A stretch of DNA of 59,546 bases from Girardia tigrina. Lineage: Eukaryota. Location of the stretch: positions 1-59,546 of the forward strand of contig MQRK01248723.1 of assembly GCA_001938485.1 (NCBI GenBank), in the 5' to 3' direction. The translations under genes and the position numbers were made by a program. The notes beneath the pieces are model-generated. The model saw nothing but the letters and a program-made list of their open reading frames with translations, was not told where the DNA came from and did not search any database. The first letter of the stretch is position 1, and every line of letters begins with the position of its first letter. Shown one piece after another: positions 2,196 through 32,289 of this stretch.

Positions 2196-2254
2196 AAATA
2201 AGTTCATAAGATTTTTAGACACGGATTAATTATTCGGTTAGAGCATTAAAAGTT

Positions 2255-3304: not shown

Positions 3305-4036
3305 TTATAAATTACTGATTATTGGACCCTCTAATCCGACATACGTTTTCAACAACTCATCTTCATTTTCAATCACTTCTCTTAATGATGTATTCAATAT
3401 TTGATACTTCTCAAATAATTTTAGCCACTTCTTGAAAATAGGTTTTAGAACTTTTCGAGACTTTTTTTCTTTGATCTCAACATAAAAGCAAGTATTGACA
3501 GTAAACTGCCTGACAATAGTGATGATTTCGTTAACGATGTCAAGAATGGAATTCACTTCACTTATTACTTCGTCATGAGCTTTTGTTAGATAATCTAAAA
3601 ATTTTGGACTTCGGATTAGTTGAGAATGCTGATCTGAATTTCTAGCCAAAATTAAACTGTATTTATACACATAGAGCTTATTATTTTGAATCTTAATCAT
3701 TTTATCAATTTTATTTTGTTTCCATTTGAGTATTTCTTCATATTGTTTTAGATATCTCTGATGTTCATTGGTAAAATCTTTATCGAGACATTTAATTACA
3801 TCTTTCACTTTCATTTGGTCCTTATTAAGTACATGGAGTAAATCACCACAACTGCCATAAATATAGATAAAGGTTTCCTTTCCGTCATCGGGTGGGCAAC
3901 ATCCATCGTCCAGATCGTTTATTCTATAACATTCCCAACAACACTGATGACCACAAGGTTTCAGCTTCAATAATGTTCCAAATATAATATTTCCACATGA
4001 GTGACATAATTCCTTTGGTGTAATTAAAGACGACAT
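3305..4036 (-). CDS. Intronless RING-like + helical/coiled-coil protein, paralog 1 (243 aa)
   Basis: Intact ORF; C-x2-C-x13-C-x-H-x2-C-x2-C...CPPD; full-length similarity to 18250-18987 and 20552-21259. Confidence 0.75.
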   Translation of the reverse strand: MSSLITPKELCHSCGNIIFGTLLKLKPCGHQCCWECYRINDLDDGCCPPDDGKETFIYIYGSCGDLLHVLNKDQMKVKDVIKCLDKDFTNEHQRYLKQYEEILKWKQNKIDKMIKIQNNKLYVYKYSLILARNSDQHSQLIRSPKFLDYLTKAHDEVISEVNSILDIVNEIITIVRQFTVNTCFYVEIKEKKSRKVLKPIFKKWLKLFEKYQILNTSLREVIENEDELLKTYVGLEGPIISNL

Positions 4037-4347
4037 TTAATTTAGAAGTAACTCAAAATAAAATTAAAATAAACAAAATAATATTTTGTTTAATTCCTGC
4101 ACAATAAATTAACAAATATTAAAACTTTTGAAATTGAGTAACGTATAATACGGAAATGTAAAAAGTAGGAAATTCATATTGTGAAAAGATGTAAAATTTT
4201 GAAGAATGATCTGATTTGCAAAGTACGATCTTCCCCTTCAACCTTTAAATTGGCTGATTTATGTTCGTAAGGTGTGACAAAGAAATTCAATAGGAACAGG
4301 AAATCGTTAAACTGATAATTCTAAACTTTGATTTGGAGAATAATTAA

Positions 4348-4562
4348 CCCTTTCAACACGATTTTTTATTTCAGTAATCCATGTTATATTAGACCCCAAA
4401 ATACTTTTTTCCTAGTAATTATTTTGCAATAATCTTTTTTTAATCAAAGTAAATTAGAAAAAAAATATTTTTGGCTATAATATAACATGAATTATTGAAA
4501 TAAAAAAATCGTGTTGAAAAGGGTATACTCTGGGACAATATGTCCCAACAGTGTTGAAAGGA
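4348..4562. mobile_element. piggyBac-like fold-back MITE
   Basis: TTAA|CCCTTTCAACAC ... GTGTTGAAAGGA|TTAA; largely palindromic interior. Confidence 0.7.
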
Positions 4563-5285
4563 TTAAAATTAAAGATGAATTTCGAAGATTGTGTAGAAGA
4601 GTTCAAACTACAGCAAAAAATGTTTTATTCAGATGCATTTAAAAATTCAAACATGGTTTTATTAATAATATTTATGATGATACAGTTCATTTTTAATTTA
4701 TACATTTAAAGTATACTTAAATTTAAAGTATTTTAAAGTATACATTTTAGGTACTGGTCAAAGTGACTATTTTCAATACATTTTGTAAAAGTGAGTTAAC
4801 TGAAGAAAAATAATGCGGTGAACTCACATTTAACAATAAATAAAAATAATTCAACTATTATTACTAAAATTCTATTTAACTACTGAAAACATTAACAGAA
4901 AGACAAAAAGAAGATTAAATGCACATTATGAAAAATTGAATCGTAAGAAGAGTCGATAAATATAAGTAACTTGTAGATGTATAGCGTATTTATTAATTAT
5001 TAAAAAATAACAGTTGTTTTACTGTTCTAAATCTGAAATCCACTTGTGAGTTATTTTCAAATAATAAAAGATTTCACGAAATGCCACTTCATCGATAAGA
5101 TGGTGTTCACCAACTTATCTTTCCAAAGATTGTAACATAAATCAATCGTTTCCTTCAGAGGAACATTGGTGAAAAAATTTAAAATTGAATCAATGTTCCA
5201 ATTTTTGACATTAAATCATGCTAAATTATTTAAAAGTGTGGATTTTGATATTTTAAAACACGTTTTAAATAATAGTTCGAATGTA

Positions 5286-6602
5286 TTGGGTTGTTGCATA
5301 AGTTCCCGCCGTTTTTTTAACAACCAAAATAATGACTCAGTTAATTATATATTTAATGAAATCATAAAATTTTAACAGCAAAAATAATAACATTTCAATC
5401 AATTATGTACTCTCTTTCATTGTTCACTACTGCTTCCCATCTTTCCACCAATTTGTTGATTCCATTTCGCCAGAAATCCTTAGGTCGAGTCTCGAAGAAG
5501 TTGTTGAAACAATTCTCAAGATAATCCTGATTTTCGAAGCTAAGACCCCTCATTTCATTTGAAAGGCAGCGGAAGAGATGGTAATCCGTCGGGGGAGGTC
5601 TTGGGAACAGGGAGGATATTGAAGGACCTCACAATCGAGCTCTTAGAGTGCCATCTTGACAGTTTTTGCGGTGTGTGGTCGAGTATTGTCATGGAGGAGG
5701 ATCACCTGGCCTTGTCGATCCGGTCTTTTTTGTTGATTTGCCTCATTGACTCGATGCAATTGGGTTTTATAGAGATTCTTTTCTACTGTAATGTTCTTTC
5801 CAAGCATTTCCTAGTGGATTAGACCCTCCCAATCCCACCATACGCAAATCATTGTCTTTATCGGGTGCAGGTCTTTTTGGGGCTTAGGCTTCTCTCCAGG
5901 ACTCACCCACCCTTTCCTTTGCTTCATATTCACATAGAGACACCATTTCTCGTCTCCAGTGATGATTCTGTATAAGAAACGTTACCTGTGGCCATGGGTT
6001 TCTGGGTGTCGAGTGAGATTTTGAGCAGCAATGGAAAGCCGCTTATCCTTCTGTTTTTGGATGAGTTCGTGCGGGACCCAAGCTCCAAGCTTTTGAGTGA
6101 AACCTATCGACTGAAGATGGCGTGAAATTGTCGCAAAATCACAATTCATCTTTTCGGCCAATTCTCTGGATGTCTGGCAGCCATCTTCCTTCAAAAGATC
6201 CCCGAGTTGGTCCTCGTCCATCTCGACTGGTCTTCCGGAACGAGGAGCGTCGTTGAGGTCGAAATTATCGTGTTTGAACCTGGCAAACCAATCCCGAGAA
6301 GTTCTCTCAGCTATAGCGTTCTCTACATACATGGCACAAATATCTCTGGTAGCTTCACTCGCTTTTTGACCCCGATTAAAGGCGAAAAGAAGGATGTTTC
6401 GAAAATGCGATTTTTTGTCGACTTGACAATCCATTTGACGGTTCTAAAAAAGGACAAAAATAATATAGGCAAAAACGATTACTTTAATCTTGTAGAGCAT
6501 AGCACGGGCTTTCTAATGGTATATAACACTTTGCCAAACATCAAAAAGTCTTTATAGAACAAATAGTTTTATATAACGGTGGGAACTTATACAACAACCC
6601 AG
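5286..6602 (-). mobile_element. Full-length degenerate mariner (DD34D) transposon
   Basis: ~28-bp TIRs (TTGGGTTGTTGCATAAGTTCCCGCCGTT), TA TSD, 1317 bp; transposase from 6434 with WVPHEL, HDNTRPH and DYHLF motifs; stops and frameshifts. Confidence 0.95.
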
Positions 6603-8411
6603 TATATTTGGGAAAAAAATAAAAACAATGTAATAAAGATTTTTTAATTTAAAAAAAATTATCAAAAAAGAATTTAAAGACATGTAAATTTGATAAAGGG
6701 AATGGACTTGTTGCAATGAATAATTGTGATTATTTTGATAAAATAGAAAAGGTTTTAAATTGTCCGCAATTTAATAAAGTTAGTAAATTTGGGAAAAATG
6801 GAAAATTGTCCCCTTTAAAAGATGATGAATATTTGTCTTCGTTATTATCGAATTTAATTGAAAATAAAAATATTGATAAACATTTAGCTGATAGTTTAAA
6901 AGCAGTTGTTTTTCAACCAGCCAAACTTTATGGACTTCCAAAAGTTCACAAAGATGACATTCCTTTGCGTCCCGTGTTATCTATGGTAAATGCATCTCAA
7001 TATAAAGTATCGAAATATCTTGATGGTAAATTAAAGCCCCTTCTGAAAAAGGGTTTTAATTGTTTAGACAGTTTTGAATTTGTTGATTTTATTTCAAATT
7101 ATAAGATTAGTAACAAAAATGAAATTATGGTTTCTTTTTATGTTGTTAGTCTTTTCACCAATGTTCCTCTGAAGGAAACGATTGATTTATGTTGCAATCT
7201 TGGGAAGATAATGTTGGTGAACACTATCTTATCATGAAGTTGCATTTCGAGAATTGTTGTGTTTTGCCACTTCTAATATTCATTTTCTTTTTAATAATGA
7301 GTGGTATAAACAGGTTGATGTTATAGCAATGGGTTATCCCTTAGCTCCAACGCTGACTTCAATATTTTTGTCAAGTATTGAAGATAAGATCGATTTGTTT
7401 TCGGGTCAAAAACTTCTAGCGTATAAACGCTATGTTGATGATATTTTTCTTATTTTCGATAATCCAATTGATATAGATCCATTTTTAGGATACTTAAATT
7501 CTTTGCATTCAAATATTAAGTTTACAACAGAAACAGAGAATAATGATAAATTATCTTTCCTAGACTTACTGATTGAAAGGAAAATAGATGTTTATGAGAC
7601 TGAGATTCCCAGAAAGAAAACTGATACTGGACTATATACATCGCCAAACAGTTTTTGTGAATCTCGATACAAATATAATATGATTAGAGGACTAATTTTT
7701 CGATCTTGGTCATTACCATCGACTTATACAAAAAGTTGTGATAGTATTAATCAATTAACTAAATTATTGAATAAAAATGGTTACTCAAAATCAATTTTTG
7801 AGAAATTGACCAAAGAAACAATTGATAAATTAATTAATAAACTGATTAAAAATGATAAAGAAGACTCAACAACTTTAAAATACGTTTTAAGCATTCCATA
7901 TTCAGAGGGATTTGGTCAATTTAAACGTTCAATTTTAAAATGTGTAAATAATGCCTTTAATTTAGAAATAATATCACAAATATATAAAATCCAAATTTTA
8001 TTTTGTAATAAATCTCCAACCGCATTTGTATTATGTTCGGATCTCGTATACAAATTTACATGTAATGGGTGTAATGCCACATATATTGGAGAGACGTCCA
8101 GTCATCCTTGTAAGAGAATCATAGAATATGGTCGGAATGTAGGTGGGAGTAATATTGCAGAACACAGAAAGGGTTGTAAGTCGAATGAAAACATAAACAT
8201 AAATGATTTTAAAATTCTGTGTTCTCGTTTTAAAAACTATTGGGAGAGGGTGGGCTGTGAAGCACTTTATATCAGATCTTTAGATTCTAAGAATAATGTG
8301 CAAATGGGTTTCTCGAAAACCCTATTGAACGTGTTTAGATGACATAATAATCCATTGATGACATAACCACTGCTTGCCTATATAGGAATATTTAAAATTC
8401 AATTTTTTCTT

Positions 8412-8456
8412 GAGACCTGACGATGACGGTTATACCATCAAAATTAATTATCTTGA
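8412..8456 (+). ncRNA. Degenerate minimal hammerhead ribozyme in Penelope pLTR
   Basis: GAC-CUGACGA-U-GACGGUUAUACCAUC-AAAA-UUAAUU; G12 mutated relative to the copies at 21.8-22.0 kb. Confidence 0.7.
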
Positions 8457-9104
8457 AAAATAAATGTCTATTTAACAAATGGCGTATTTTTGTTTTTAAA
8501 AAAATTTTGTTAAATTTTTATTATTTTTTTTGTTAATTTATTTTGTTTATCAATTACATTGCAATTAACAAACGATATCATTTTTTCCATTATAAAGATT
8601 ATTTTATAAATTTAATGGGAAATGGGGAATTTTTCCCATTGTTAAGTTTGGAATTGGGTAATTTTCGTCATGGGCAATTTGTAAATGGAGAATTCTTTTT
8701 GGGTAGTTTTCGCATGGGGAACTTTGTTTTTGGGATTTGTCATACCACCGATAACAGTATGAATTTAAAATGAAAACCTGTTATTCTAAATAAATAAAAA
8801 AACCAAATTCAGATAAAAATACAAATCCAGATTTTTGTTCATAAACGATATACTAATTGACATAAATTTAATCTTTTGAATCTGAGCAATGTATATATTT
8901 TTCATATATATATATACTTCTAAAATTCTCTAATTAAATATTCAAAAAGAATCAATATTTAATTTTTTAAAACTGATCTCAAAAATACGTCATTCAAAAA
9001 AATTTCAAATTATAAAAAGAACGAAATTTAATGAATCTTTGTTTTAATATTGAAATGTTAAAATTATCTTTTTGAAAATCTGAAAAACTTGGTAATAATT
9101 ATCG

Positions 9105-10929
9105 ATGCCTTGTAAAAATAAGGGATTTCTATTGAAAGCGGCAGAAAGTGCAATTTATAATTTACAATTTGCGAATTATGATCGATTAATGCAGAATCCG
9201 ATATTTGGAAGAGTCAATCGCAATCGAATTTAAATAGTCAGAGTATTTTGAATTTACCGGAAATATGTCATCGAAGCGAACCAGCGCAATTTAATGTGAT
9301 TTTTTATGACACAATATTTTGTATTTCTCGACGAAGAAAATTTTTTTTCACTTTTATTGGAAAATTAAATTAATTAATAAATAATCTCCAATTAATTTGA
9401 GATTTAATTAATTTAATTTTTAATAATTAAATTATCAATTAATTTGCGATTTAATTAATAAATAATCACAAATTAATTAATAAATATTCACAAATTAATT
9501 CATATATTGAGACACAAATAATTAGAAATTAATAAAGAATATTCATAACTTATTTTACCAAAACAAGTGATCTTGATAAGTGTGAAATGAATGACATGAC
9601 AACAAAATCAAAAACGACATGAAAACCATTAAATGACATGGATTTCATTTATAACTTTGGAAAAAATATTTCCATATTGTCAGCACCAATGAAAATTTGA
9701 TTACCTTATTGATCATTTTTTATGGTTAAGTTTATAAGTATTATTTATTATTTTAGTGCAAATTACAAATTTCGGACTATGACTATAAATTGTAATAATA
9801 AATAGCTAAATAATTAATAGATGCATATTTGGTTATCGTTGCTCACCAGTTTAAGAGTTTAAATATATTGGGTTCGTGATTTAAATCCAAAGTCATTATT
9901 CGCAAACTTTGTTTCTAATCCAACTTTCATTATTGAAACAAATTTATGAGGAACATTATTTCAGTTACATAATCCAGATTTTAAAATTCTAAATATAAAT
10001 AATATTATTGATTGTAAGGTAAAATCTATGTAATAGGGATAAAAACAAGACGACGCGTTTCGAGATAATAAAAATCCCATCATCAGGTCACAAATTACAC
10101 TACGCAAGTACACTATATGGAAACTTTCCGAAAATAAATTTAATTTATCCAATAAATTATTGGATGAAAATAACTTTATTTCACTTTTCCTTAAAATTAA
10201 GAAAAATGCACCAAATGCAATCAATCTCATTCTCGCAAACCAACCANNNNNNNNNNNNNNNNNNNNNNNNNNNNNNNNNNNNNNNNNNNNNNNNNNNNNN
10301 NNNNNNNNNNNNNNNNNNNNNNNNNNNNNNNNNNNNNNNNNNNNNNNNNNNNNNNNNNNNNNNNNNNNNNNNNNNNNNNNNNNNNNNNNNNNNNNNNNNN
10401 NNNNNNNNNTCAAATCCAAAACAATCCGAAATCTCATCGATGCAATTTGACTGAAATGTCTGACCAAATGGAAATCTGAGAGAACGTTGTGTTCTCTCAA
10501 CTGTACCAGGTTTGACACTGGTGACACTTAGTATAATAACACATTTGGCCAATGCAAAACAATCACACACCGATAAAATACATTTTGTTTTGAATTCCTT
10601 CGTTCTTTCCAAGTTGTTCAAAAAATAATTGATTTTAACGTCATAATATACACATTGATACATATCATATGTCTCCGTTACCTTGTAAAGTACGGAACGA
10701 TAGAGAAAACATATCGTTTTCTCAAATGGCAATTGATAGCTGCCAATGGTTGGTTTGCGAGAATGAGATTGATTGCATTTGGTGCATTTTTCTTAATTTT
10801 AAGGAAAAGTGAAATAAAGTTATTTTCATCCAATAATTTATTGGATACATTTTATTTATTTTCGGCAAGTTTCCATATAGTGTACCTGCTTGGTACATTT
10901 TGTGACCTGATGATGGGATTAATAATATC

Positions 10930-10968
<39 letters not shown>

Positions 10969-13900
10969 TATTTTATTCAATTTTGCATAAATCATATTTT
11001 GTTTTTGTTTTATTAATTTTTACAATGTTTATTAATTGAAATATAATTTTATATCTTTAAAATTATTTTAATGAACATGTCCTGTAAAAATTCAATTCCT
11101 AAATAATTTTTTCTTTAACTTTACATCATTCAATTATAATTATTTTTTTTAATAAGACTTTCCGTGCACAATTAACTTCAATAAAACATTATGATTTTTA
11201 TTTTAAATAGTGTTACAAGATATGTCAAAATCTTCTTTACAATATTCTTTAACTCCGAAGCTGTTATTTTAATTGTGATTTTTTAAAACCTAATTTTTAT
11301 AAAAATTTATTTCATTTTAATTAGTCGAACATTATTTTTAATTTATCTCAAATATAAATATGATTTTTAATTTAAAAATATCAAAAATTTACAGTTCACC
11401 AAAAAGAACCCCTAACAAAATATATATAAAAATATTTAAACCGCTTTACATAAACATATTAAGTTGTTAAAATGTTTTTTTTGTTTCGGTTAATTATAAA
11501 TTTGATTCTGCTATCTTTTGAATAATTTAATATATTATTTTAAATCATATCTAAAAAAACTTCTTTAATTTTGATAAAATATCTACTGTTTTTACTAAAT
11601 TCTCAAAATTTGATAAATTATTAAATAATAAATTATATTAATAGAACATTGATTTTCATTTTAGTAAAGCATTTTAAAATTATCAAATATTAACTGAAAA
11701 TAAGTAAATGAAAAATGTCAAAAAAAATAAAACATTTTTTATAAATAAATTAAAAGTTATTTTTGAATTATTATTTTTATCAAATTTTAGGTAAAAAATG
11801 TTAAAATTTTTTTTAAAATTAAATTAAAATAATGTATTAAATATTTTTAGAATTATTAGAAAAAGCTATTAGTATTGTTAAGAGAACTCACACATTTGAC
11901 AGAAAATTTATTACATTCACATTTCTTATAATCTTTATGATGATCAATAGTATTGCTTTCACTATAATCCATCACTCAATTTTCAATATCTCTCATTATA
12001 ATCTGAACTAACTTGATAAGATTATATTATTAAAAAATATTTAATTTAAATTTGATTGGCTAAAATAAAATATTTTTATAGTTATTTTTAAACATTAATT
12101 TGATTTTAATTATTTAAAAATTTACAAAAATAAAATCAATAAAATTATTTAAAAGTTGCAATAATAAAAATTAATATCATATCTTCGATTTTGATGCCTC
12201 TGTTGATTTTGTGGGTTATTTGTTCTTTACCATTCATTTTTCCTGGCATATTGGTCTCTTTCTTTAAATCTATTCTTGTTCATGTAGCATTGCGTCCTGA
12301 TATGGCCATTTTTATTGCAATAAGAACACTTTATATTTGTACAGTTTCTTCTGATGTGTCCTTCTTCGTGGCATGCCCAGCATTTTACAACTTATGAATA
12401 GTTATTTATCGGTACGTTACCGTTTTCCATTCATCATGTTTACCTACCGTATTGTATGCCGCAACTGATTCTTCTTTTTCCATTTTGCGTAGTTCATACA
12501 TATTTGAAACTACATCTTTTATGTCCTTTGTTTCGGTAGCTCCTCTCAATTTCAATTCTCTTTTCACCTCATAATCGTCAACCATATTCATGCAAACAAG
12601 GTTGAGCAGCTTTTTCTTAGAAAGTTTACTTTCTGTTAATATCGTTACTAACTCTTCGGCTTTTTTGAACGTTTCTTCTGGATCTGAAGATCCCNNNNNN
12701 NNNNNNNNNNNNNNNNNNNNNNNNNNNNNNNNNNNNNNNNNNNNNNNNNNNNNNNNNNNNNNNNTTTAAAATATCCTTCATTGTGTCGAGCAAAGATTTT
12801 TCTTTCACAAATGCCGTTTTAAGCTTTTCTTTATACGTATTTCCATCTGCTTCTGAAAATTTTGTGATTGCTGATGGAGTCATGAAGATCGTCACCATAA
12901 CTAATCTTCTATCTTCTGTTATACTCATAATATCCGCATAACGTTCGATTTTTTTTATGAAGTCATCTAATTTCGACTCGGATCCATCAAATTTTTCGTG
13001 TCCCATAATGTTCGTTGTCACATGAGCTGTGGTCGCCATATTAACAACATCAATATGAGTTTTGCAACANNNNNNNNNNNNNNNNNNNNNNNNNNNNNNN
13101 NNNNNNNNNNNNNNNNNNNCATAATGTTCGTTGTCACATGAGCTGTGGTCGCCATATTAACAACATCAATATGAGTTTTGCAACATTTATTATTATCACA
13201 AGCGCATTCACTATTTGACATCTCTCTTGATCAATTTACTTCTGAGTTCAAACTAATTATTTTCAATAAATTAAAATTTGTTAATAAAAATTATTAATTA
13301 TAAAGAATGTAATTGGTTGAAATTAAATCTAAACATTTTTAAAAAAGAACATATTAAATTAATATATTAAAATTTTAAATTACATTAAAAAATAAATAAT
13401 ACATTCAAAAATTATTTTAAATCTTTTTACTTTAAAATTAAATTAAATTATTTTTAATTAGTAAGAATCAAAGAAAATACCAATCATCCATCTGTGTAGG
13501 AGAGGCACAATCCGAATCAACATGCACAATATCAACACACAATTCAAAACATTCCTCACAACAACGACCAGATTACTTGAAATAACTCAAAAAAATGTAA
13601 ATTGCTTGCAACAGATGTAACTTATAAACTTATCAAGGTTATCCGGTTTTTATGGTGGGAACCATGGATAAAGATCGTTCCTATCATCCATTTGGCTTGG
13701 CTGTCTGCCTTAATGAACAATCCGATGATTTCCAATTCATTTTTAAAACATTAAAAAGTGCTGTATTTAAAGTATGTGGACATATATATAAACCATCAAT
13801 TTTACTTGCTGATGCCGCCGAATCTATCACAAATGGATTTGTTAATGCGGATGATCAATATGAAACAATAATAGTGTTCTGGGTTAATGTGATTTGCAAT

Positions 13901-16900
13901 TTAGATACAAAACTAAAATTGATTAAGATTTAAATATATTACTATCTCAAATGAAGCCAAAATTTAGGTGCTTGGAGGTAAAAAAGAGGGCGAACAACTA
14001 AAACGGCAACTGCTTTATTATATCAAAGAAAAAGTTTTAATGAAACAAATGACGATGATTTTCATACTCCAGATCCTTCGGTTAATAATCCTGACAATTT
14101 AAGTAATTAATAAAACGCTTAGTAGCCAATTTGTCTTTTTAAATCTATTTTTCTTATATAATATTAAAATTGTATCATATTATTATTTTTGTCGAATTTT
14201 TTATATAACTTGTCTCTATAATAAAATAAATTTGTTACAGAATTTTATCTATTTTGTTGCTAAAAATTATTTATTTTGTTGTCAATTGATAATTTATGTG
14301 TCGCTAAAAAAACCATAATTAGTTGCAAATTTTATTTTTTTAGTAGTTGAAATAAGTTTTAAGCCTTTTTGTTTACCTAATTACTTTAATTTTAAAATTA
14401 ACAAGAATAAAAAAAAATTCTAAAAAGTCAAAATTGGAAATTGAAAAATAAAAAAAAATTAAATCATTTTTGTCATTAATTAATGAAAAATGTTAGACAA
14501 AAAAACTAAGAATTAAAATATTATATATATATNNNNNNNNNNNNNNNNNNNNNNNNNNNNNNNNNNNNNNNNNNNNNNNNNNATATATATATATATATAT
14601 ATATATATAGAAAATTAATGGGGAAATCAAAGCAATAATACTCATTTGCATGAAAAATTATGATAAAGCTTTGAAAAATAATAGCTAAAAAAGATTTATA
14701 CAAAAGTTATTTTTCTTAGTGAGGTAAATATAGAATGATATCCGTTTTTATTGCTAATATTTTTTTTCATGAAAACGAAAGTTGAAATGTTGAAATAATT
14801 GTTGTTTTCTTGTTAATTTGGAAAAAAGATTTTTTTCTTGGTGTAGAGAAATACGGAAGAATTTACCTATATTATAATTTATTATTTTTGACAATAATTT
14901 CCATCGATTCAGATGCAATCTCAGCGGCCCTCAACGTCATCGGCAATTGATCCTTTAAATTCTCAAGTAAAGTTTATTTAACAATTCTTATCTATTTTAA
15001 AAATTTCAATTGGTTATTTTTCTGTAAGTAGTCCGACAATCAAAAATCTTTTTACAGCTTATTTAAGGAATAGAAGTAAATTCTAATTCCAAATATTTAT
15101 AGATGATAACCGTCTTTTCAACGCTACTTAAGGATTTTATTAAAATATTCATCGATTTTGTACTTTTTGAAGATAGGGGTTCCGAAAAATTTCGCATTTA
15201 TTGATTTTTGAAAATTGATATTGAAAATATTTGAAATGTAAATAAATTGATTGAATTCAAATAAATTTTCATGTTGTGCTCTTCTCATTTTTAGTAACAA
15301 CACGGTCCATGGAGGAACAAATCACTTTTGAAGAAAAGAAGTTTTTCATCGACACTAACAAAGAATGGTTTTTGGGCAACTGACATTCACCGTCTTATCG
15401 AAAACGCGTTAGGAGACATAATTACTGTCAGAAAGGTGCAGTAAATAGTGAAAGAATTTCATGATGGTAAATTTGAAGTATTTGATAAACGAGAAGAATC
15501 TGGAAGACCGCGAATTTCTGAAACACAAGAACATGTCTTATTGAGATTGACAAGTTCTTGAGCCTCACCAGTCTCTCTATGATCACCAAATCTACTATTC
15601 AATGTATTCTCACTCAAGAACTTTAAAAGATCGGTGCCCAAGTCAAATGGGTTACATATGGCTTGAGCGAATCTCAAAAACAAACTCGTGTGTCAGGATG
15701 CGAAGAAATTCGATGTGTTACGATGTCTCGCAACATTAGAAAAATTTTTTTTGTTACAGATGAGTAGTGACTATATGCTCGACATTTACCATCTTTGTCA
15801 TCCTCCAGAACGTGGGTCTATTTTGGGGGCCACAGACCACCGGTTGCCAGAAGAATGATACGTGACAAAAAGTTTCTGTGGCTAATGATCGCAAATTTTT
15901 ATAGTGACACCTACTTTGAGATTTTGAATCATGGAGAAACCGTTAATACAGAAAGGTATTTGGAATTCCTATCACGAATGTTTACAAATTTTCATATTAT
16001 GCGCCCAATCCTCATGTATTATAATGCTTGTCCGCTGTCGTCAGGATAGTACAAAATTTGCTAAAAGAAAAGAATATCAGCCTACACTGACAGCCCATTA
16101 TTCTCCTGATCTGAATTTAATGGATCGTTACATCTTTAGAAACTTTGAGATATTCCGAGGTTTGGATACTTTGTCAACAAAAGATTTAATAAGAGAAAAA
16201 ATCCGTGATTTTATAGAAACGTTTACTCCTGAGGAATTTAGCAAGCAGTTTACTAACTTTGTATCCAATGTTGGCAGAGTAATTGAAAGTGGTGGTACCT
16301 ATTTATAAATAATTATTCCACTTCATTCCACATTTTCTTGTTTTGCTAAATGTTATGTGATTGAATTTGTTAAAAATAAAACTTGACATACATATGATAT
16401 TGATTTTTAACCTTTTGGAATACAAATATATAAAAAATATTTTTGGAACCCCTTATAATTAGGAACGGGTTGAGCATTTTAATAGTTAACAAATAATAGA
16501 TGAACGGCGCAGGTTTTTCCTTCATGTCTCTCGCACCCAGGATGTATCATATATGATGCATAGTGACAAAAAGACTGTAAATGTTCCGAAATATAGAAAG
16601 GAGTGAAACGAGTTTATACATAAAAACGCTTTACTTCTTATGGTATTCTGTGAATCAGTTTCGAGATTAGTCCAATTTCTATTGAGTAAGATCAAAATTT
16701 TAAACGAAAAATCACTTGGTAAAAAATCTACAAAAAACTCTTAACACACATTTATTCCGACGACTCTCTCAACCATGTCTCAACACAAATGCCGTTTGGT
16801 GATTACATAATGATGCATACCATCTATGAAAATATTCGCAAAGCTTTATAGAAATTATATACGGTGAGCATATGAATCAAATTATTCTAACTTTCATACT

Positions 16901-19900
16901 ACAGCATTAAGAACGCGCGTATCACGTAGAATACAAGGTGACTTGCAAGGATTAATATTGATAGCTCATTTTCCTAATAAAACTTTTTGTATTTTATTAT
17001 TTTGGTCAATACTCGATTCATTTCTATTCGATTGAGCGCCTTAAGTTATTCTGGTATATGAGATGACTATTGGTTTCTCAAATGTACAGGGATTCATTCT
17101 TATGACATTTAAATTGATAAACTAGATTAGTTTGAACACGCAAAGGAGTTTGCGATTTTGATTTACAAATATCTTTTAGCAAAACAGTTTTAATAAATTT
17201 GGAATTTTGTAATAACTTTAATGGTTAACGAGTTATAGCAGCATTGATTTGCATTTATTTTTAACAAAAATATTCCATTTTAATTACACAAGAAACATTT
17301 ATTTTCGGCAAACTTATTGAATAAAATCATTTTTTATTTTATCTATTTGTAGAAAAATGAAATCGGAAGTGGCAAAAATCTGAATTTTTCTCTTAATGGA
17401 ACGAATAATGCATCGGATGTTGACATATTAATTAAAGAAGTATCTATTTTTTACAAGCACATATTTTGCTGATACCAAATATATAGAAAGAGACATTGCA
17501 AGAACAGTTGTATATGGCTAAAGGTCAACTGAAAATTGTTGAAGAGAATTTCAAAACCAATTTAAATCAAAGAAATGAAGAAATAAAATCATTGAAGGCC
17601 GATCTTTTTGCATCAAAAAGTGAATATGAAAAGACAATAAAAGTTCTTAAATCCAAATTGGAATTCAAAGAAGCATCTTTACATGGTGCCCAACAAGAAT
17701 TCATGAATTTGAAGTATGCTAATGAATCTTTGAATGAATCAATTCAAGGAGGTTATAAAACCATGATTTTTATTTTAAAATTATTTTTCATATAATATTG
17801 GCAAAATAACATGTATATATATGTATATATGTATATAATAATTGCAATTTTTAAAAATTTAAGGATTTTAAAATTTGAAGACTTCATTTTGTCCATTTCT
17901 TACCGTAATTGCCTTTGTTCTTTTTCAATCTTTGCTCTCCCAGTAAATATTTGCATTTTAGAATGAGTAGATGTGATTAACCTTTTCGCCCTTACCAACG
18001 ACAAACAGAGTGAAGACATTTCCAATTAATTATAAATAAAAAGATATAAAAATCAAAGAAGAGCGATATCAACTTGTAAAAGATACTATAGAAAATTCTT
18101 GTCAAGATAATTCTAATTGTAATAATAAACAGTGTTTTCAAAACCATTTTAATGATCTTATTAATTACATAAATGAAGACATCATCATATAAACAGATTA
18201 CAAAATCGCCAAATAACTTATTAAATTTATTTAAATCCTTTTTCTAAATTTATGTAGTACTGTTTATAGGGTTTTTGTGAAAATTGTTTAATCTAACATA
18301 CTTTTTCCACAACTGATCTTCATTTTCTTTAATTTCTCTTGCTGTGTTATTCAATATTTGATACTTCTTAAGTAATTTTCGCCATTTCTTGGAGATGGGT
18401 TTAAGAGATTTTCTGAGCTTTTTTTCTTTAATCACAACATAACAGCAAGTATATAATGCAAAATGTTTAGCAGCATAAATCATTTCGCTACTGCGGTCAA
18501 GAATGGAAGTCACTTCACTCATTACTTCATCATGAGCCTTTTTTTGATCATCTATAAAATTTTGACTTCCAATTAATTGAGCATGCTTATATGATGTTGA
18601 TGACAAAACTAAGTTGTGATTGTATGTACCATTTTTATTTTTTTGATTCTTATTCATTTGATAAATTTTCATTTGTTTCAATTTGAGTTCTTCTTTATAT
18701 TGTTTTAGATATTCATATTGTTCATTGACATAATCTTTATCGAGAGCTTTAATTAAATCTTTTAATTCTATTTTGTTTCTATTAAATACATTGATTAAAG
18801 CACTACCCCTGTAAACATAAATGAGGTTCTTTCCAACTCCGGGAGGACAACATTCATCGTTTAGATCACTTAATCTAAAGCATTCCCAACAACACTGGTG
18901 ATTGCAAGGTGTCAGTCTCAGTAATGTTCCAATTATAATATGTTCACATAAGCGACATATTTCTTTTGATGTAGTTAAAGATGTCATTTAATTTTGAAAT
19001 AACTTAAAATGCTATTAATATGAAGAACATAAATAAACAAATATTATTTAAACTATTTATTTGATACGGAAATATATAATGAAGAAATTTTATATTGTGA
19101 AGAAATCAACATCTAAATTTCACGCAATGGTTTGATTTACAAGGTGTGGTCTTTATTTTCAATCTATAAATTAGCTTATAAAGGTTTGTAAATTCTGATC
19201 CCAATTATACTGAGCAAGGTGATAGTTGTTCCTTTACTCTCATTACAACGTTGTGACCTGCTGGAAAAAAATGATAGAAAAATCAAAATTTCCAAAAAAT
19301 CGATCATGAGGCGTTGTTTCAGAAACAAATTTCTGTTCTCAAACCTAAAATAAAAGATTCATCAAAAATTGAATTATCTGATTGAATATATTCATCAGCA
19401 TGTGTACCCAATACATCTTCATTTGTATAACTGTTCGTTTCATAATCTTCTAGATCTTCAGACTCACCAGTGGTTATATCTTTCATTCTTTTAAAATTCC
19501 TTTATTGTTACTGTATTAGCTATATATATTTAAAGACAATATGTTTTTCTGAACCCTTTGTTTGAAAGAAAATTTCTTAATTATGATACTGGAAACTTAT
19601 GCTGGTTTATATATTTTGAAATTGATCAATTTGTTTTTTAAAATTATTCAATTATTTTCATCTTATTTCTTAATAGTTTCTGAATTTTCAGAATCTCTCC
19701 GTTTTCGAAACGGTCAAAATACATCCAATAGTATAATAATTATTATCTAATTTGTGATTTTTATTCATGTCAGTATTTGGTGTAAAATTTATTTTTCATT
19801 TGACTTTTAATTATATATTAACAAAGGTTTTTTAAGGTTTTCAACTGGGTGTAACCTAAGAAAATGTAGGTGTACAGTATAATATATTTATTTTTACTAA

Positions 19901-22765
19901 AAAATTGTTACATCACACATGTACACTGGATTTAAAGGGTTAAGAACAAAAAATGTCTTATATTTATTTAACAAGTATACAATTATAAATGACCTGGTGT
20001 AGGAGCGTGTATGTGCGAGAGGGAGAGAGAGTGGGTGGAATAGCACTGTGTGTATGTTTTAATGAACCCATGCTTTACCTATAAATAGCCAAATTTTTGG
20101 GTGTACATCTATAAAAGTTGGGTGTACATTGTACACCACAAATGACCTTAAAAACCCTGATATTAACAGTTACTTGAGTTGTGCCATCATGTAGATGTAA
20201 ATGACTAAAACCTAATTAGAAAATATTTTATCTTTTTATTATTTATTTATTACTTATTTTGTCTGAAGAGGACAATTAATCCTTCGAAATTAATAACACT
20301 GTATTTTTACATTCGTAATTTGTCTTTTTATTGTAATTTTTATATAAAAAATAGTAAGAAAATTTTCTAAAACATATTTCAAAGAAGTAAGTTCACTTTC
20401 TTTATTATATATTTCCGTATTATATATTATTCTATTTAGTAAATAAATTTTAGGAAGTTTTTCTTTATATAAAATGTATTTATTACATAAGAATCACATA
20501 ATATTAAATTTTTGTTTATATTAAAATTATTTAAAATTATATACTTATCAAATGACATCTTTAATCCAACCAACACCTTCATGTCACAGATGTGGTAACA
20601 GTATTTTTGGAACATTCATTAAACTAATGCCCAGTGACCGTCAACTATGTTTTGAATGTTTTATGACCAATTATCTGGAAGGGAAACATTCTCAAATTGA
20701 CGAAAGTGACAGCTCTATCCTTATTTTTGGCGCCCGTGGTGATGTACTTTGTGTTCTTGATAAAGATAAAATGACATTGAAAGATATAGTTAAATCTCTT
20801 CATAAGGAATACATCAATGATCATCATAAATATTTCAAAATGTATAAAGGAGAACTCAAATTAAAACAAAAGAAATTGGATCAAATAATACAGACTCAAA
20901 ATAAAAATTTTGATATATATAAACGCAATTTAAATTTGGCAACAAATTCATTGATACATTTTCACTTAATTCGAGGTCAAGCTTTTATTGAACACGTAAC
21001 GAAGGTCCATGATGTGATAATAAGCGAAGTGAATTCTATTCTTGAAGGTGTTATTGAAATATTTTTTGTTATTAAACAATTTATATACAACAGTTACTTT
21101 TTTATTAATATTAAAGAAAGAAAGTTCCGAAACATCGTAGAAACTATTTTTAAGAAGTGGTTGAAATTAATTGAGAAATATAATATTTTAGAGGTATCAC
21201 TGAAAGAAATTAGTAAAAAAGAAGACCTTTTATTGAGAAAATATACCGTATTGCTGTAATTATGGAAAAACATGACCCCACTGATATGAAATAACAGTTC
21301 AAATAAATTTTTTTATTTAATAACTTTATCAATAAATAAAATTTAGGTTTTCTTTTAAAAAAGTACCTTTAGTTTTTTTAATCATCTTTCAAAAATATAA
21401 AATTTTTCTTCACAATTTTTAAAATTAAAGATTAAATATGTGAGGAATATTTTAAATTGTATGAATGTGGGAATGTACTGATGCTGTATGTTGATTTGAG
21501 TATGTTGAAATTAGAATGGTTAATCTCCCACCCAGATGGAAATTTGTATTGTTTTGTATATTTACAAGATTGACTATTCGAACATACTTAAAATAATAAT
21601 TTGATAAGTTTATATTTTTTGAATTAACAATTAAAATTAAGTTAATATTTTTTAAAAAACAAAAAGAAAAGTATTTAATTAGTTTTAAATTAAATTCATT
21701 TTTAAAAATTTCATTAAATTTTTTTATTATATTGAGTTTTTATAAAGAAATAGTTAAAATTATTATTTTTTAAAAACAAAAACACGCCATTTGTTAAATT
21801 TATTTTTTACGACGGTATTATTAATTTCGACGGTATAACCGTCATCGTCAGGTCTCAAGAAAGAAATGAATTTTAAATCTGCTTATATAGGCAAGCAGTG
21901 ATTGTGTCATCAATGGATTATTATGTCATCTAAACACGCTTAATAGGGTTTTCGAGAGACCCGTCGATGACGATGATGGTTATACCGTCGAAATTAATTG
22001 TCGTAAAAAATAAATTTAACAAATGGCGTGTTTTTGTTTTTAAACATAATTTGCCATTATTTTTTAATTTTTGAATCATTATTATTTTTTATTAATGTTT
22101 TTATAAATTAAATATTTTAAAAGGAATTATAAAAAATCGTTCGAATAATCATGATTAAAAATAAAAATTAAAAAACCAAGTAGAGCGATGTCAAACGGTG
22201 AAAGATCTTGCGAGAGTTGTAATGACCCCAAATGTGATAGTGATAAAGATGCTAATGAAAATTGTCTCAATATTCTTAACAAAATAATTTAAAAATAAGT
22301 AAAAATTAACTGAAATGTTAATTTGTAAATTATCATTTTTATTTATTATTATAATTTTTAAATTACGGTAAGGCAATATTGCTTAATAAAATTACAATCT
22401 TGCAAATCTGCTATCAATGTGAACAAGTAAAGTATCTTTCTGTGCCACATGAAGTTTTAAATCAAGTTTAAAAAATTAAAAAAAATTGACAATAACGTTT
22501 TTAATTATGCTAAATAATTGTTGTTTTAAGTTATATTTTAGTTTGTCAATGTAAGGGGTCTAGATTTAATACGATTTCACAATTCTATCTAATTGGTATT
22601 TTCCAGTGAATATATGAGATACCAGATTGATAAGATTTGTAACTTTATAGTTATTCATTTTAAAATCATACAAATTTTGGAGTATTCCAACCCAAATGAA
22701 TTTAAGAACTAGAATTTGGGCAATCAACTTATTTTATGACGGAAGACTTCACGTCATTTAAACAT

Positions 22766-22817
<52 letters not shown>

Positions 22818-24486
22818 NNNNNNNNNNNNNNNNNNNNNNNNNNNNNNNNNNNNNNNNNNNNNNNNNNNATATATATATATATATATATGGTTGCCTCATA
22901 AGTTTTGTCGCAAAAAACACCAAAATACATTAACGGCACACCGTGGTTTTAGCCTGATCAATTCCCTCTACAATGTTCCTCGTTGTTGCACGCTTGTCTT
23001 CAGTCAGAAACTCGATTATCGTCTCGTCTATGTCAAAAGAGGGCCGCCCTTCGCGGACTTAATCGTCTGTGTTAAAAGTTGGTTTCATGAAAATTGGAAA
23101 TCCACCTTTCATATGTTCTCATTGAGACTGTTCCAACTCCAAGGTCCATGTTAATTTCGTCAGTCAGGTGTGAGGGTGTTAAATCCCTTTTCCAGCAATA
23201 GTAAATTAATATATAAGAGCGAATCAAATCCATTAGGATTATGAAAATGTGCGAAATTTACGAAAATGCTATAATTTTATTAAAACAAAAATTCATTTAG
23301 AACAGAAAATAAAAATTATTGGACATAAGTAGATCGCAAATGCTATTTTATCTAATTCACATTTTATTAGGGTATGCAAATATATAAGAATTATTTATGT
23401 GATGCAAGGATATCTGCAGTTAACATAGATATATGTGTGCGACAAAACTTATGAGCAACCCCATATATATATATATATATATAACTAAATACATATCAAC
23501 ATTACTGTAACTTTTTATAACCACATAATAAACTTTTTTTCAAAAGGATCTTTACGTTTAACTTATCACCTGTTTAAAATTTTAGGTAATTTTCCTAAAT
23601 TTACTACTGTGGTTTCTCCGAATTCTAATCGAGGAAGAAAAAGAATAAACGAAGCCGATGTTATTAAATCTCAAGTTCCTAAAAAGCAAAAAAGCTCATT
23701 TAAAGATTTGGGTAATAAATTGTAACTGAAAATTTATTTCAGTGTTTACTATAGTAAATTCTTTTTTTTCTAAAACGGATGCTGGAAATACGCACTATCC
23801 CGTTACTCACCCAGTTACTGTTTCAGTAATGAAAAATGAAAGTGCTTCAACATCCAAAGACATAATAACTAAACTGACACTTGTCCCACCAATAATGAAA
23901 CCAGATTCAAGTACAAATATAATACATCTAAATGAAAATGTCTGATTTTGAAATATTTATAAAATATTAACTCTTCCTTAGACTACAGACATTGAACAAA
24001 TATCCAAAGAAGTAAATAAACTTGAACATGTCCCGCAAATCATGAAACAAAATTCAAGTACAAATATAGTACGTCCAAATGAAAATGTGTGACTTCGAAC
24101 TGCTTATAAAATCTTTAATAACTGTTCTTTAGACTGCAAAAACTAAACCAACTGATTTAGTTCAATTAATCGAGCCATTTAACTTTACTTTAAATATATC
24201 GGATGAGAACAATTATTTGGATCTATTAAGCGTACCAGGAATAAAATGTCCTCAGGAATGTTGTGTTTCGTGAGTGATAATTATTATTACTTTGTATCTT
24301 TTTTATATAACTTTATTCGGAATATTTAATTGAGCTTTTTATATTCATCATCTTTATCCATTTCTCGAAATATTCCCTCTATTTGCCTGAAAGGCAATTA
24401 TGTTCAAATTAATCATTGGAAAATTTAAATCATTTTTATGTATTCGAATGACAATTTATTAATTTATTTACTGCTTCGTTTTACTA

Positions 24487-24541
<55 letters not shown>

Positions 24542-27500
24542 NNNNNNNNNNNNNNNNNNNNNNNNNNNNNNNNNNNNNNNNNNNNNNNNNNATATATATA
24601 TATATATATATATACATATATATGTATTTAGGGTGTATCATGAATGAAAAAAATCTGTAATTTCCATTTTCGGTAGTCATAAAAAATTGACCCAACATGT
24701 TTTGAAAGTATTCAATAAAAAATTTTTTTAATATTGCCACCCGCCAATGAATCAAAGATTTTGACCCTATAATACCAAATATTCTCTATATATTTTGCAT
24801 GTTAAAGGGGATAAAAACAAAACAAGTAGAAACTGTGAATAATTAAAGTACAGATTGAGATATGTTAATCAAAGTTCCAATCCTGCTTAGAGGAATAGCT
24901 TTTCTAGAAAGAAGTCTAGCTCGGATATAGCCATCTCTTCGCATAGAACCGTGTACAGCACTGGCGGCTTCCTTTACCAGTTTGACATGACGTTCAACAG
25001 TTTGAGAGTGACACGGAATAGATGTTTTTACGGCTGCATCAATATCTTCATCACTAATATTGGCTAGCAATGGAGGCTCTCTTCGTTCACAATCATCCCA
25101 ATTCACCCGATCACAGTAGCTCTCAGCTTGAAAGTTTATTGAGGGAATGCGAAATCTTCTTACACCATGACAAGTCTTCATACCTTGTCTTTCTTCTTTG
25201 ATTCTTCTTAATGCAACTTATCTTCCTTTTTTTCGTCAACTAGCATGGTCAAAATGATATTTTCTGGGGAACAAAATAAGTATTTCTTTGTACGCATGCA
25301 TCCACAACATGACGATTACCATTAGGAAGAAAACGGGAGAATTTAATTAGGCTCCATACGTGCACCTTGATAGGCTCCTTGTTAGCACTGTAGATTCAGT
25401 TTTATACGACACCACATTGGAGCATAAACGAGAAGAATATAATCTGTTAAGGCAAGAAGCTCCTCTGATGGTGACGCAGTTAAGACATAAAGTCGCAGAA
25501 TTCTGTTTGCCTCAGTGAGCCATCGTGAATGTACCAATTTACCTGGCTCTCTCTTTTCAAGAGTGGAGGAAACAGAGCCACACTTTATTGCCTTGCATAT
25601 TTCGTAAAGGTACTCCTGATCTTTACTCAATTCTTTCCGAACATCAGGTTGGATTTGACATTGCAGACAATTTTCCCTTACTCGAAATTAACAATATTCG
25701 TATCATGACAATGAAGCAGTATCTTTTATATTTCCCCGGTGAAAGCGTTTTGACCAGCAGCATATCCATCAAATTGTAATAGAAGGTGTCTCAGAAGCAG
25801 CTCATTGAAATGGAAAAGACATATCACCCTCTGTAACGGACTCCTCAGATGCAATTCTAATAATCTTGTAACACCATTATTGATACCTGTGGTAACGTTT
25901 GTGCCATCTGCACAGATAGCCCTGAGATTTTCCATGCTGATATTATTTTCGTTGAAATAATCCCGTATGGCTACAACAATGTCCCTTTCTGAGCCACTTT
26001 TAGGTGCTACATGACCAAGAAATTTCGAATTTGGTTCTTCAACAAGCACGAAGTGTTCTTCCACAATTGTACCTCGGGAGTCTGTCGAGATTTCGCACAG
26101 CGTCATATCTTTTCTCTCGTCAAAAAATAATGATTGTGGGGAGTTTGCGGATAAAGTCAGTTTTGCTTCTTTAGACAAATTCGCTCGTATCTTTTCTCTC
26201 TGACGTCACAATTTAGCACGGTCAATAGTTAAAGAGCTATTCTCCCCATCGATAACACCATAATCAATTAACGTGGCCGTAGCAATGGCAGCACCAGTAG
26301 TATTGGAAACCACATACTTGCCACATTCCCTAGTAACTGTAGGTAGTTCTATAAAATTTCTCTCTGATGTTTATTCACCTTTAGGGATAAAGCTTTCTTC
26401 TCGAGAACGGTAGTCTTCTAATTCACTTTCATCACCAATGTCTTCTACTCTATCCTCTGCACAATAATTTTCGACTTTGGTTCTTTCATAGTATCATTTT
26501 AGCTTCACTTGTCTTTCAATTTTCATTTGTAATGTTGATGTTGCTTCTTTATCATATCCACCTATTCGCATTTGCCTCGTTGTTCTTTGATCGACCAAGA
26601 ATTTCTGTTCTAATGATGGAATTTTAAATTGTTTTGAGCTATTACATATGAGAAAGTCAACACACTTACATGCTGCAATATCAAACAACTTGTGACTATG
26701 TTTAACTTTTTTCTTCATGACCAATTCATTGTATTCTCCCTTTTTCTTCAGATTATTCTTGTAATCGTTCTGCAATTTTTCTAGGCTGTTTTGGATTCTT
26801 CTTTGTGAAAGAACTGGGATACCATATTTCTGCCATATTTCCACTAGCGCCGTTGTAACACACGAAAGAATTTTCTTGCATTTTGTATTACTTGTTTCTC
26901 TCTCCTTTAGATGAAAATAAAATCTCATCACATATCCATTTGTCGGCAATAGAGTAGGAGGCAAGTCGCTGAGAAATCCATAAATGGGTTTCTTGTGTTT
27001 TGTTCGAGTTGTTATCATAACTGTAAATATAAAACAATATCCATATCATACACTACAGTCAAATTTAAAAATGCGGTATATATAATTCAAAAATAGAGGA
27101 AAAAGCATTTCATGCTAGATTACATGGCAACATATTGGGTATTTTAAATTGTCAATTATAAAAATCTATAACTATAATTTATAACTAACATTTAACTGAA
27201 AATTTAAAATAGTTAAAAACACACGTGTATAGCATGTAAACATGCATGTGTTGTTCTCGGTCTAGGACTCTAGGCACCATTTAAGTGTCGATATTGATTA
27301 TAAGCATATATAAACACATTGAATGAATGCAAATTAGAGCACTTATATAGGTATTATAGCAGCAAACACGCACCTAAAAACAATTTTATCAGATGCGACG
27401 CCACCGAACGTATATGCCAGCAAAAATTGAATTGGTGGGGGTATAAACGCAGTTTAAACAAACTTTTTGTCATATATTGTTGATATCTGTAATGTGGGGA

Positions 27501-30500
27501 AACCAGGAGCGATCGATATCTTGTAAAATTTACCCCGATTGGATGGCGCTCGGAAATTCAATGAACCGCCATCAAACCCGCGCACTGCTGTCGGTTGTTG
27601 AACTTTCAATTTCCGTTTCCGATTATCAGTTGTTCGCTTCGACTCATTTCGCGTTTTCGGAAAATGCGTACCGTCCTTCGGGCCGTACATGATCTAAATA
27701 TTATCCGAGATCGATTGGTGATCGATTTCTTCCACTCTGATCGATTACTGACGACAGTTTTCCGGATTTTTTGCTCTACCGGAGCCGGCGATCAATCGAT
27801 CATCGATTTGATATGGAAACAGATCTTGCAGTCGATATAATTATCTTAATGGAAAAACCAATGGTATTTATCGGCAATGATTCGCCGATATTCTTCGGTC
27901 CAATGAAGCGGTTTGATTCGCAATTCATTGAGAAATGTATCGTTCTTCAATTCCAATTCACCGGTTACAATAATCAATGAATTCAGTCAGTAAATCGAAT
28001 GATTTTCTGTCGTTTAACGACCATTGATCGTCATTTGTAAACAAATAAATTTATATACCAGATTAGCTTGCAAATCACAAACTGTTTTCGATTTGTTTGA
28101 GAGGAAACTTTGAACTTTGGATGTGACAGAGATTACTTTAGAACTACTTATTTCTGTTTGCTTGTTTGTATACATATTGTCCCTATTTGCTTGTTGGGAC
28201 AATATGTATACAAACAAGCAAATAGAACACAACATTAGAGTAACATTAGAGAAATTATGTACAGATGCACGAGTTAAAAAACAATTAAAAGAAGAAAATA
28301 CTGAAGAATACAAACAAATCATTAAAATTCCATATTCTGAAGGATTTAGAGCATTTAAGAAGAGTATTTGTAGAACAATAAGTAGTGCTAAAGTAGTCTC
28401 TGTCACATCCAAAGTTCAAAGTTTCCTCTCAAACAAATCGAAAACAGTTTAAACTGGTCAGCAAACAATCAGTCCAAGTCAATTTTGATACATTCTGTCA
28501 GGTGTTGCTTTTTTTTCCACTCACTTTCTATCCTTTGAATAGTTCACATTGATTTATATTTTTCACGTTTTCCTTACACTCATTCAGTTCCAGTTTTGTA
28601 TGGCATGAAAGTCGTCTTTTTGCTATGATATCCATTGAATGTGGTAAGCCAATATCTAACAGTTCCATATTGATCTTCTCTGTTTTATGTACTTCTAGTG
28701 CTCTTCTGGTACATAAGTTATGGAATGCTGTCAGCTTTTGAACATGATCTATGTTTGTTCTCCAGAATATCAAATGATAACTATTAGTCAGAGCAAATGA
28801 TAATTTTATTACCTATGCCGTATTTGTATGTCAAATACACTATATAATCACTTTTTCTTGACATATAGCTTTTACAAATTCTTACGGGTTTCTTGTACAA
28901 CACGTGTGTAGTATTCACCATTGTCAGTGAAGATAGTGTAAACAACACTACACTAATAACTAAAAGTGGGCATCATCACTTCTTATCGCTGAGAGAATCC
29001 ATTTAATAATTTCCGAGAGCTCTCTTCTCCTGTGATTTTCCTTTCTTTTGATGATCTATTTATCATCTCGGATCCAAAGAGAGAGTGGTGCTTCGTCCTT
29101 TGACCATATTATCGAGGAATTGATCACCAATTCCTTCATGAATGTTGAGGTTGTCTTTGCAGCACCTAAGTCGCTTTTCATACACCTCTGCATTGAGAAT
29201 GTAATGCACGAACTGTGAAAATAATTTCCTTACTCTCAGGGTATGGATTATGTTATGCAATGTGTTATAGCTGTTTTTTCCCACCAATTTCTCATAGTTT
29301 AATGCTCATCTCCTCGACAAGAGTTTTTGTTCTTTTTAATTTTCCTTAGAAGCAAAAACTTAATTACACTGCGGTTTTCTACGTCGAATTTCATGTTAAA
29401 TTGAGTAATTGTGAAATTTATCTGACGAAATAGTCAAACGGTAAAACAAATGCCATAATTTTTACCTATGTAGATGTATTTTTTCGCATAAAAATTACTA
29501 CATTATTAATTAATCTACCAGTCTACTGATTTTTAAACATTCTAAAATAAAAAAATTAAAAAGTTCTATATTAAATTGTACATAGTTGAAAGGAAATATA
29601 TTTTCTTAACGCATTTAAATAATGCAAAAATGTATTCATCTTTTATTTTTTCTAATTTAGCATAAATCAGAAAAAGATGTTTTACTGGAGTATGAAAGCA
29701 ATGGAGAAATTTCTTCCCGTACTACAGTTGTGTATGAACTTCCATGACGACCCTTTGACGCCTCCAGTCTTAAATGTTATTAAAGAAATTATTAATTTAC
29801 TAACTCTTCAATTTCAGGTATTTTCTTTATTACTTAATTTTTATTTCTCTTTTAATTATTTATTGATTCATTTTTTTTCTTTTTATATTTTATTTGTCTT
29901 GCTATCTATAAACATGGAATTGTATTTAATTCTTTGATTCAATTTAGCGATTATTTATATCTTTGAAACGTCGACGAGGAAGTATTGACAGCACCCTTGA
30001 AGAGATATTGTCGAGGAAGGTGTTCAATAAGTCGGACGTCTTACTAAACCCACAATACTCGTGTTTATTTCATTATATTTATCCAATTTCGGAAGTTATT
30101 AAGAAGCTGAGTTTAATAGTAGGATATCACTTTTTCAAATGATATTTTATTTTTCAATTTCTTCGGTTTTAGGCGTCTTATCGTCTTGATCTGATAGTCA
30201 ACATTCTAATTGATTGTATATTACCAAACTTCTTTGATATTGTTAATTATCTTCACATTGGTTTCTGTTGCACCGAGCAAATCGACGAGGAATCTGTGCA
30301 CCGATGTCGCACTTTTACTAGTGACTTTGAAAACGATTTCATTAAAGAAATTATTGAGTTTTCCATTCGAATAATATCACAGTCTTCCGATTCAATCAGA
30401 AGTTGCATTTTCGACAAGTATAATATTATTTATTTATAATTGTTAAATAGTGTTTCTATATTCATATTTTAAATATATTATATCATTGGAGTATAGATAT

Positions 30501-32248: not shown

Positions 32249-32289
<41 letters not shown>

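Follow-up and report, generated by a model that had tools for sequence, protein, structure and literature searches.

Four degenerate RING-helical genes of Girardia tigrina, a likely offshoot of a large flatworm C3HC3D RING family

Degenerate RING domains and lineage-specific expansions of RING genes are known kinds of thing, and the expansion of TRAF genes in planarians is well known. The C3HC3D type of RING is defined in the accessible part of PMC3166285, which also places a tryptophan in the contact with the E2, with exceptions such as the histidine of Rad18. The linchpin residue is described in the accessible part of PMC13061254, as are pseudo-E3s, BARD1 and TRAF2 among them. For the planarian Schmidtea, 393 RING/U-box transcripts are reported in PMC8807557, the accessible text of which comments on the expansion of TRAF only. 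In its Table S1, 18 transcripts have human PHRF1 as the best match, 17 of which score 35–61 bits and the remaining one 98.6 bits; this fits an expanded family of this type of RING in planarians, the likeness being that of a best-match listing. The TRAF/MATH expansion of planarians is itself defined by the MATH domain, as far as the accessible parts of PMC6109357 and PMC7586133 go.

Here we describe P1–P4, a set of RING-helical genes of Girardia tigrina (Table 1). Three of them lie in the window, by which we mean the whole 59,546-nt stretch analysed (contig MQRK01248723.1 of assembly GCA_001938485.1), and P4 lies outside it. Like the TRIM (RBCC) proteins, P1–P4 have an N-terminal RING followed by long helices, and both sets are lineage-specific and fast-evolving. 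However, P1–P4 possess neither B-box nor SPRY, and in the model a hairpin of two strands is followed directly by the first helix of a three-helix bundle. TRAF proteins carry MATH and TRAF zinc fingers, whereas the C-terminus of P1–P4 is all helical in the model and has no Pfam match. The absence of B-box, SPRY and MATH had been predicted from the sequence, and no Pfam domain scores above its cut-off in any copy. The C3HC3D RING-HC E3s (TRAF6-type pattern) share with P1 and its parent family an Asp as ligand 8 after Cys-Pro; P1–P4 differ in having a degenerate RING and a helical bundle instead of PHD, TRAF zinc fingers or MATH. The planarian TRAF/MATH expansion, to judge from the accessible parts of the two papers on it, resembles the present case as a large lineage-specific expansion tied to flatworm ubiquitin signalling, but MATH is absent in P1–P4 and was not found in the six parent-family members scanned. 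With BARD1 and TRAF2 the likeness is functional rather than one of sequence, namely a RING that is kept but unsuited to E2 binding, as the accessible part of PMC13061254 has it. In literature that covers subscription journals thinly, no account was found of an expanded family of tandem RING-helical genes, nor of degenerate single-module genes such as P1–P4.

Table 1. Positions of the genes and associated elements; coordinates refer to the window unless another contig is given.
Feature	Position	Strand	Remarks
P1	3305..4036	(-)	243-aa uninterrupted ORF: RING-like + beta-hairpin + three-helix bundle
P2	18250..18987	(-)	245-aa paralog ORF; Gly at ligand 8
P3	20552..21259	(+)	235-aa paralog ORF; first zinc site only: C11 C14 C33 C36
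P4	contig C206056, 4938-5684	(-)	248-aa intact fourth copy, outside the window
Upstream element ATTTCCGTAT of P1	4148..4157	(-)	about 120 nt before ATG
Upstream element ATTTCCGTAT of P2	19064..19073	(-)	about 85 nt before ATG
Upstream element ATTTCCGTAT of P3	20411..20420	(+)	about 140 nt before ATG
Dispersed repeat, ~130 bp	18024..18166		directly 3' of P2; second site 3' of P1, near 3079-3200
Host gene	14913..41618	(+)	10-exon chain as far as 35434; past a gap in the assembly, 39320 and 41322 are probable sites of the last exons
Coiled-coil exon of host gene	17487-17751	(+)	
Host-gene intron with P2 and P3	17752..23585	(+)	third intron, GT-AG, 5,834 nt; flanking exons join in phase 1

P1–P3 had originally been predicted as three paralogs of about 240 aa, and their ORFs (235–245 codons) are indeed alignable over the full length, with pairwise amino acid identities of 56, 49 and 37%. 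They had also been called intronless, which is true of the coding part and is limited here to that part. P2 and P3 form the head-to-head pair that had been claimed, diverging from ATGs 1,564 nt apart within an intron of a spliced plus-strand gene. A sequence search of the assembly (1.43 Gb in 255,254 contigs, so fragmented that copy counts are lower bounds) returned four significant copies, P1–P4, and the helical part as the sole query returned the same four. Over all pairs, the identity is 37–58% for amino acids and 63–76% for nucleotides. Among the weak matches of the helical domain, 4 of 22 sub-threshold rows and one further locus were inspected, and all were unrelated. The set of P1–P3 stands as predicted, but not as a self-standing three-gene system: together with P4, the three likely branch off a RING family of this genome that has far more members. 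The best reading of these sequences is that P1–P4 are a real, selected, lineage-specific subfamily of degenerate RING-helical genes.

A variant RING with D or G as the last ligand had been predicted, and this describes P1 and P2 correctly. Eight ligands with the spacing of a C3HC3D RING are found in P1 only (C11 C14 C28 H30 C33 C36 C47 D50). The eighth ligand is G in P2 and R in P4, or H one position earlier; in the latter reading, C46-x-x-H49 of P4 is followed by Arg50 as a possible linchpin. In P3, PSDR takes the place of PCGH and the distal cysteines are gone, as had been noticed at the outset, so that four ligands and one zinc site are left. The first zinc site is the sole one invariant across P1–P4. 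As to the residues that contact the E2, the helix Trp is absent in all four copies (N, K, S and N at its site), the linchpin Arg is missing in P1–P3, and the residue after ligand 8 is D, N and V in P1, P4 and P2, respectively; the hydrophobic residue before Cys2 is kept in P4 and P2. No Pfam RING model reaches the cut-off of 27, the best score being 11.4 bits (P4), and P1–P3 give no match. A screen for RINGs that relies on domain annotation would consequently miss P1–P4.

The parent family was found through P4, whose six sub-threshold matches in the genome (E 0.05–0.8) are all uninterrupted CPxD RING ORFs. Genome searches with two of these ORFs gave at least 150 matches each (539 and 602 candidates); the two lists share entries, contain haplotype copies that are nearly identical, and were inspected in part. 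The combination of a CPxD RING and a hairpin is presumably of the PHRF1/SCAF11 type; orthologues of PHRF1 and SCAF11 carry a PHD finger beside the RING, whereas neither P1–P4 nor the six family members scanned have a PHD match. The ORFs occur on many contigs in several forms, including two-module proteins of 480–550 aa, proteins with one RING and an acidic tail, and proteins with one RING and one helical module. Up to 71 RING ORFs were extracted, and 45 passed the filters (at least 440 aa, no gaps, non-repetitive, a second zinc finger at 230–330). These 45 have the two-module layout [RING1 + helical][RING2-like + helical], with a median module-1 identity of 19%. All six family members scanned pass the Pfam RING cut-offs. 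This large parent family is a more interesting discovery than P1–P4 themselves.

When the RING profile of P1–P4, with the beta-strand or hairpin behind the RING, was aligned with that of 12 single-RING members (HHalign), the alignment was gapless over 53 columns, with a probability of 87.8 and an E value of 3.3e-6. Shuffled sequences with Cys/His fixed scored as high as the real one in 0 of 300 cases for P4, 4 of 300 for P1, 19 of 300 for P3 and 28 of 300 for P2. Against the profile of the second module (RING2), the RING parts score 12–15 bits, and none of 200 shuffles reached this for P1, P2 or P4. The helical region resembles the family modules weakly: all shuffles are beaten only by P1 on module 2 and only by P4 on module 1, and by P2 and P3 on neither. 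In a tree of 30 of the 45 two-module proteins, built with no outside RINGs, P1–P4 fall among the RING1 sequences; their branch is very long (3.74) and the support unstarred. Taken together, the profile, shuffle and tree results make a good case for placing the RING of P1 and P4 in the CPxD family, and a weaker one for P2 and P3 on their own.

RING1 of the two-module proteins is nearly uniform where P1–P4 are not. It has Ile/Val before Cys2 in 43 of 44 sequences, Trp, Pro and Asp each in all 44, and Arg in 43 of 44, as counted in 45 proteins, one of which could not be parsed. Judged by these residues, RING1 has the appearance of an active ligase. Most of the E2-contact residues are missing from RING2, as they are from P1–P4.

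The genes had been called E3-like, and P3 had been singled out for its lost cysteines, as a decoy or dimer partner might look. The RING ancestry is likely; since all four copies lack E2-contact residues that the parent RING1 keeps, pseudo-E3 or adaptor is the better term. We propose, with a probability of roughly 0.5, that P1–P4 derive from the large flatworm C3HC3D RING family and act as pseudo-E3 partners or adaptors and not as strong stand-alone ligases; the contrast between RING1 and P1–P4 favours free-standing modules that would partner, tune or compete with the ligases of the family. The zinc finger would still fold, P1 and perhaps P4 binding zinc at two sites and P3 at one. By analogy with BARD1 and TRAF2, the degenerate RING may pair with an active RING of the family or compete for its partners, and the basic helical bundle may bind the target or the partner.

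Alternatively, P1–P4 could be active but atypical RING E3 ligases, in which the helical bundle recruits the substrate or dimerises and P3 alone is inactive. This is possible, though we doubt it. P1 does keep a complete C3HC3D ligand set, P2 and P4 still have a hydrophobic residue ahead of Cys2, Arg50 of P4 may serve as a linchpin, and active RINGs without the Trp exist, Rad18 with its His being the example in the accessible part of PMC3166285. Set against this, the Trp is missing throughout, ligand 8 is different in each copy, the E2-contact positions are nearly invariant in the parent RING1, and the Pfam RING models stay below their cut-off.

A long helical region had been predicted, and AlphaFold2 with the four-sequence alignment gives three long helices (77–133, 144–187 and 191–233) behind a zinc-finger-like domain (8–52) and a beta-hairpin (56–71). 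In the best model the pLDDT of the helices is mostly 70–90. One of the five full-length models is confident (pLDDT 76, compared with 41–51 for the other four), and the isolated N-terminal model has a low confidence (pLDDT 60). The full-length model matches CorA (Z 12.9, rmsd 2.1, 120 aligned), gp41 mimics, STAT and spectrin; these hits are generic helical ones within the helical-bundle background and were discarded. For the N-terminal model, the top structural matches are ZZ fingers, with Mind bomb at Z 6.5 (rmsd 3.0, 71 aligned) and RINGs at Z 3–4, while the top Foldseek row is the RING of TRAF6 (E 0.093). The PDB sequence search listed LIM domains (E 0.14–1.9).

These ZZ matches raise another alternative, that the zinc finger no longer serves the ubiquitin pathway and has become a treble-clef or ZZ-like module on a basic helical scaffold binding nucleic acid, membrane or protein. 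The invariance of just the first zinc site in all four copies is in keeping with it, as are the pI of 8.2–9.3 and the third helix, which is better conserved than the RING (37% vs 24% invariant columns). We nevertheless regard it as distinctly unlikely, given the alignment, free of gaps, with genuine RINGs from this genome and the background of the fold search (Z below 8), which includes the ZZ matches.

Selection on the frames had been inferred in the original prediction, with dN/dS proposed as the check. Across four codon models, the omega of P1–P4 (M0) is 0.55–0.71, and omega = 1 is rejected with a 2dlnL of 6.8 under MGK, which fits best and for which kappa was set on a grid, and of 15.9 under GY. 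Pairwise dN/dS by NG86 is 0.42–0.75 at kappa 1 and 0.59–0.99 at kappa 2, where five of six intervals include 1. In 20,000 runs of neutral evolution along the same tree, all four frames stayed open in none, and the mean number of stops was 33. All three indels in the coding part are in frame (3 nt each), compared with 5 of 18 in the flanks, the other 13 being frame-breaking. Purifying selection on P1–P4 is thus real but weak. The genes evolve fast, as had been claimed, and four sequences cannot tell positive selection from relaxed constraint. For the pseudo-E3 partners or adaptors proposed here, the high substitution rate would come either from targets that change, as in an immune or germline conflict, or from a relaxation of constraint. 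A look-up of expression listed no RNA set for 18000–21400 and found no cover on P1 in three small contig sets; having no positive control, it is uninformative.

The homology among the copies stops about 200 nt upstream and about 250 nt downstream, and neither shared terminal repeats nor TE genes were found around them. The copies would stem from duplication, at the DNA level, of a roughly 1.2-kb unit that takes in the upstream element, P2 and P3 by an inverted duplication inside the host intron. That a transposon or an endogenous virus carries P1–P4 as cargo, or that the copies died recently, has in its favour the TE-rich surroundings, the high omega and the viral RING proteins that are their Atlas neighbours (0.85–0.89, below the lead threshold of 0.9), but is most improbable in view of these homology limits, the mere four significant copies and the rejection of neutral decay; a clear match to a TE accessory ORF, TRIM or TRAF, which had been named as a refutation of the original prediction, was likewise not found.

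Should P1–P4 be partners of a large E3 repertoire that evolves fast, they would give RNAi a way into flatworm immunity or germline control, and P1 to P3 form a natural series of stepwise RING loss. A wider scheme, speculative and rather unlikely as it stands, is a hitherto undescribed ubiquitin-based system of defence or germline conflict in freshwater flatworms, in which at least 100 uninterrupted genes would pair an active with a degenerate RING on one chain, and free degenerate modules would tune or block them, the whole diversifying against changing targets.

All four ATGs are preceded by the 10-nt element ATTTCCGTAT, at a distance of 84–139 nt. Its 9-nt core has just three sites in the window, those before P1, P2 and P3, and is also present before P4. 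The element may be a promoter site or a 5' UTR splice donor. It is not general in the parent family, as TTCCG or CGGAA occurs in 7 of 68 upstream regions against a background of 27%. There, a WWCCAAT box stands on the sense strand in 29 of 54 upstream regions, mostly 80–111 nt before the ATG; shuffled controls contain it in 4 on average and 11 at most, and the related paralogs are not independent. We take NF-Y to be the putative factor binding this box. On the 3' side, the similarity between P1 and P2 was considered as a conserved UTR and rejected: it belongs to a dispersed repeat of about 130 bp, which has 40 copies at 72–84% identity with unrelated flanks among the matches listed, and among 27 repeat-bearing loci a family match was found on the P4 contig only. 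The repeat could be an old MITE, SINE or small RNA family.

The exon chain of the host gene from 14913 to 35434 was assembled by hand from splice signals; it has 531 codons with no stops, and all nine introns are GT-AG. The gene had been called ATRIP, and its exons encode a coiled coil and, at the N-terminus, a stretch with SQ, an architecture like that of ATRIP. Single exons gave no ATRIP match in Pfam, PDB sequence searches or the Atlas, so the putative name is taken solely from that architecture.

Outside the genome, homologues of P1–P4 were not found at E ≤ 0.01 in a search of 5.8 billion sequences (three query sequences, 129–429 aa only), at E ≤ 0.001 among 1.84 billion representatives, or in viral or metagenome contigs. 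These blanks are weak, because a control stretch of COX1 from this genome had a best match of only 78%, with no named flatworm among the 120 matches listed (a length-limited search), and flatworm coverage of the databases is thin. The parent-family profile retrieved one outside match, a plant protein alike in the RING only.

Mitochondrial COX1 has 31 matches in the assembly, nuclear copies that are broken by stops and shifts of frame. They have TGA at Trp, ATA at Ile and AGG at Ser columns and one AAA at an Asn column (Asn in 53 of 59 homologues), which corresponds to NCBI table 9. With the AT-rich genome and the short introns of 31–47 nt, this code points to a free-living flatworm, probably a triclad. 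Elsewhere in the window, an ORF at 843–1223 (+) has weak similarity to Stathmin (Pfam E 0.042), and 1788–2460 (-) is a broken, apparently intronless copy of a PP1-like phosphatase (Metallophos E 1e-14). An RT plus nuclease-like element of two ORFs at 6716–8451, which we assume to be Penelope-like, has a 146-nt end that recurs inverted at 21817–21962, inside the host intron. A hammerhead-like motif was seen in it by eye, with no Rfam match; the Rfam search of window positions 1–30000 gave four matches, all below the gathering score. A long tandem array of short units with several spurious open frames occupies 42050–43170.
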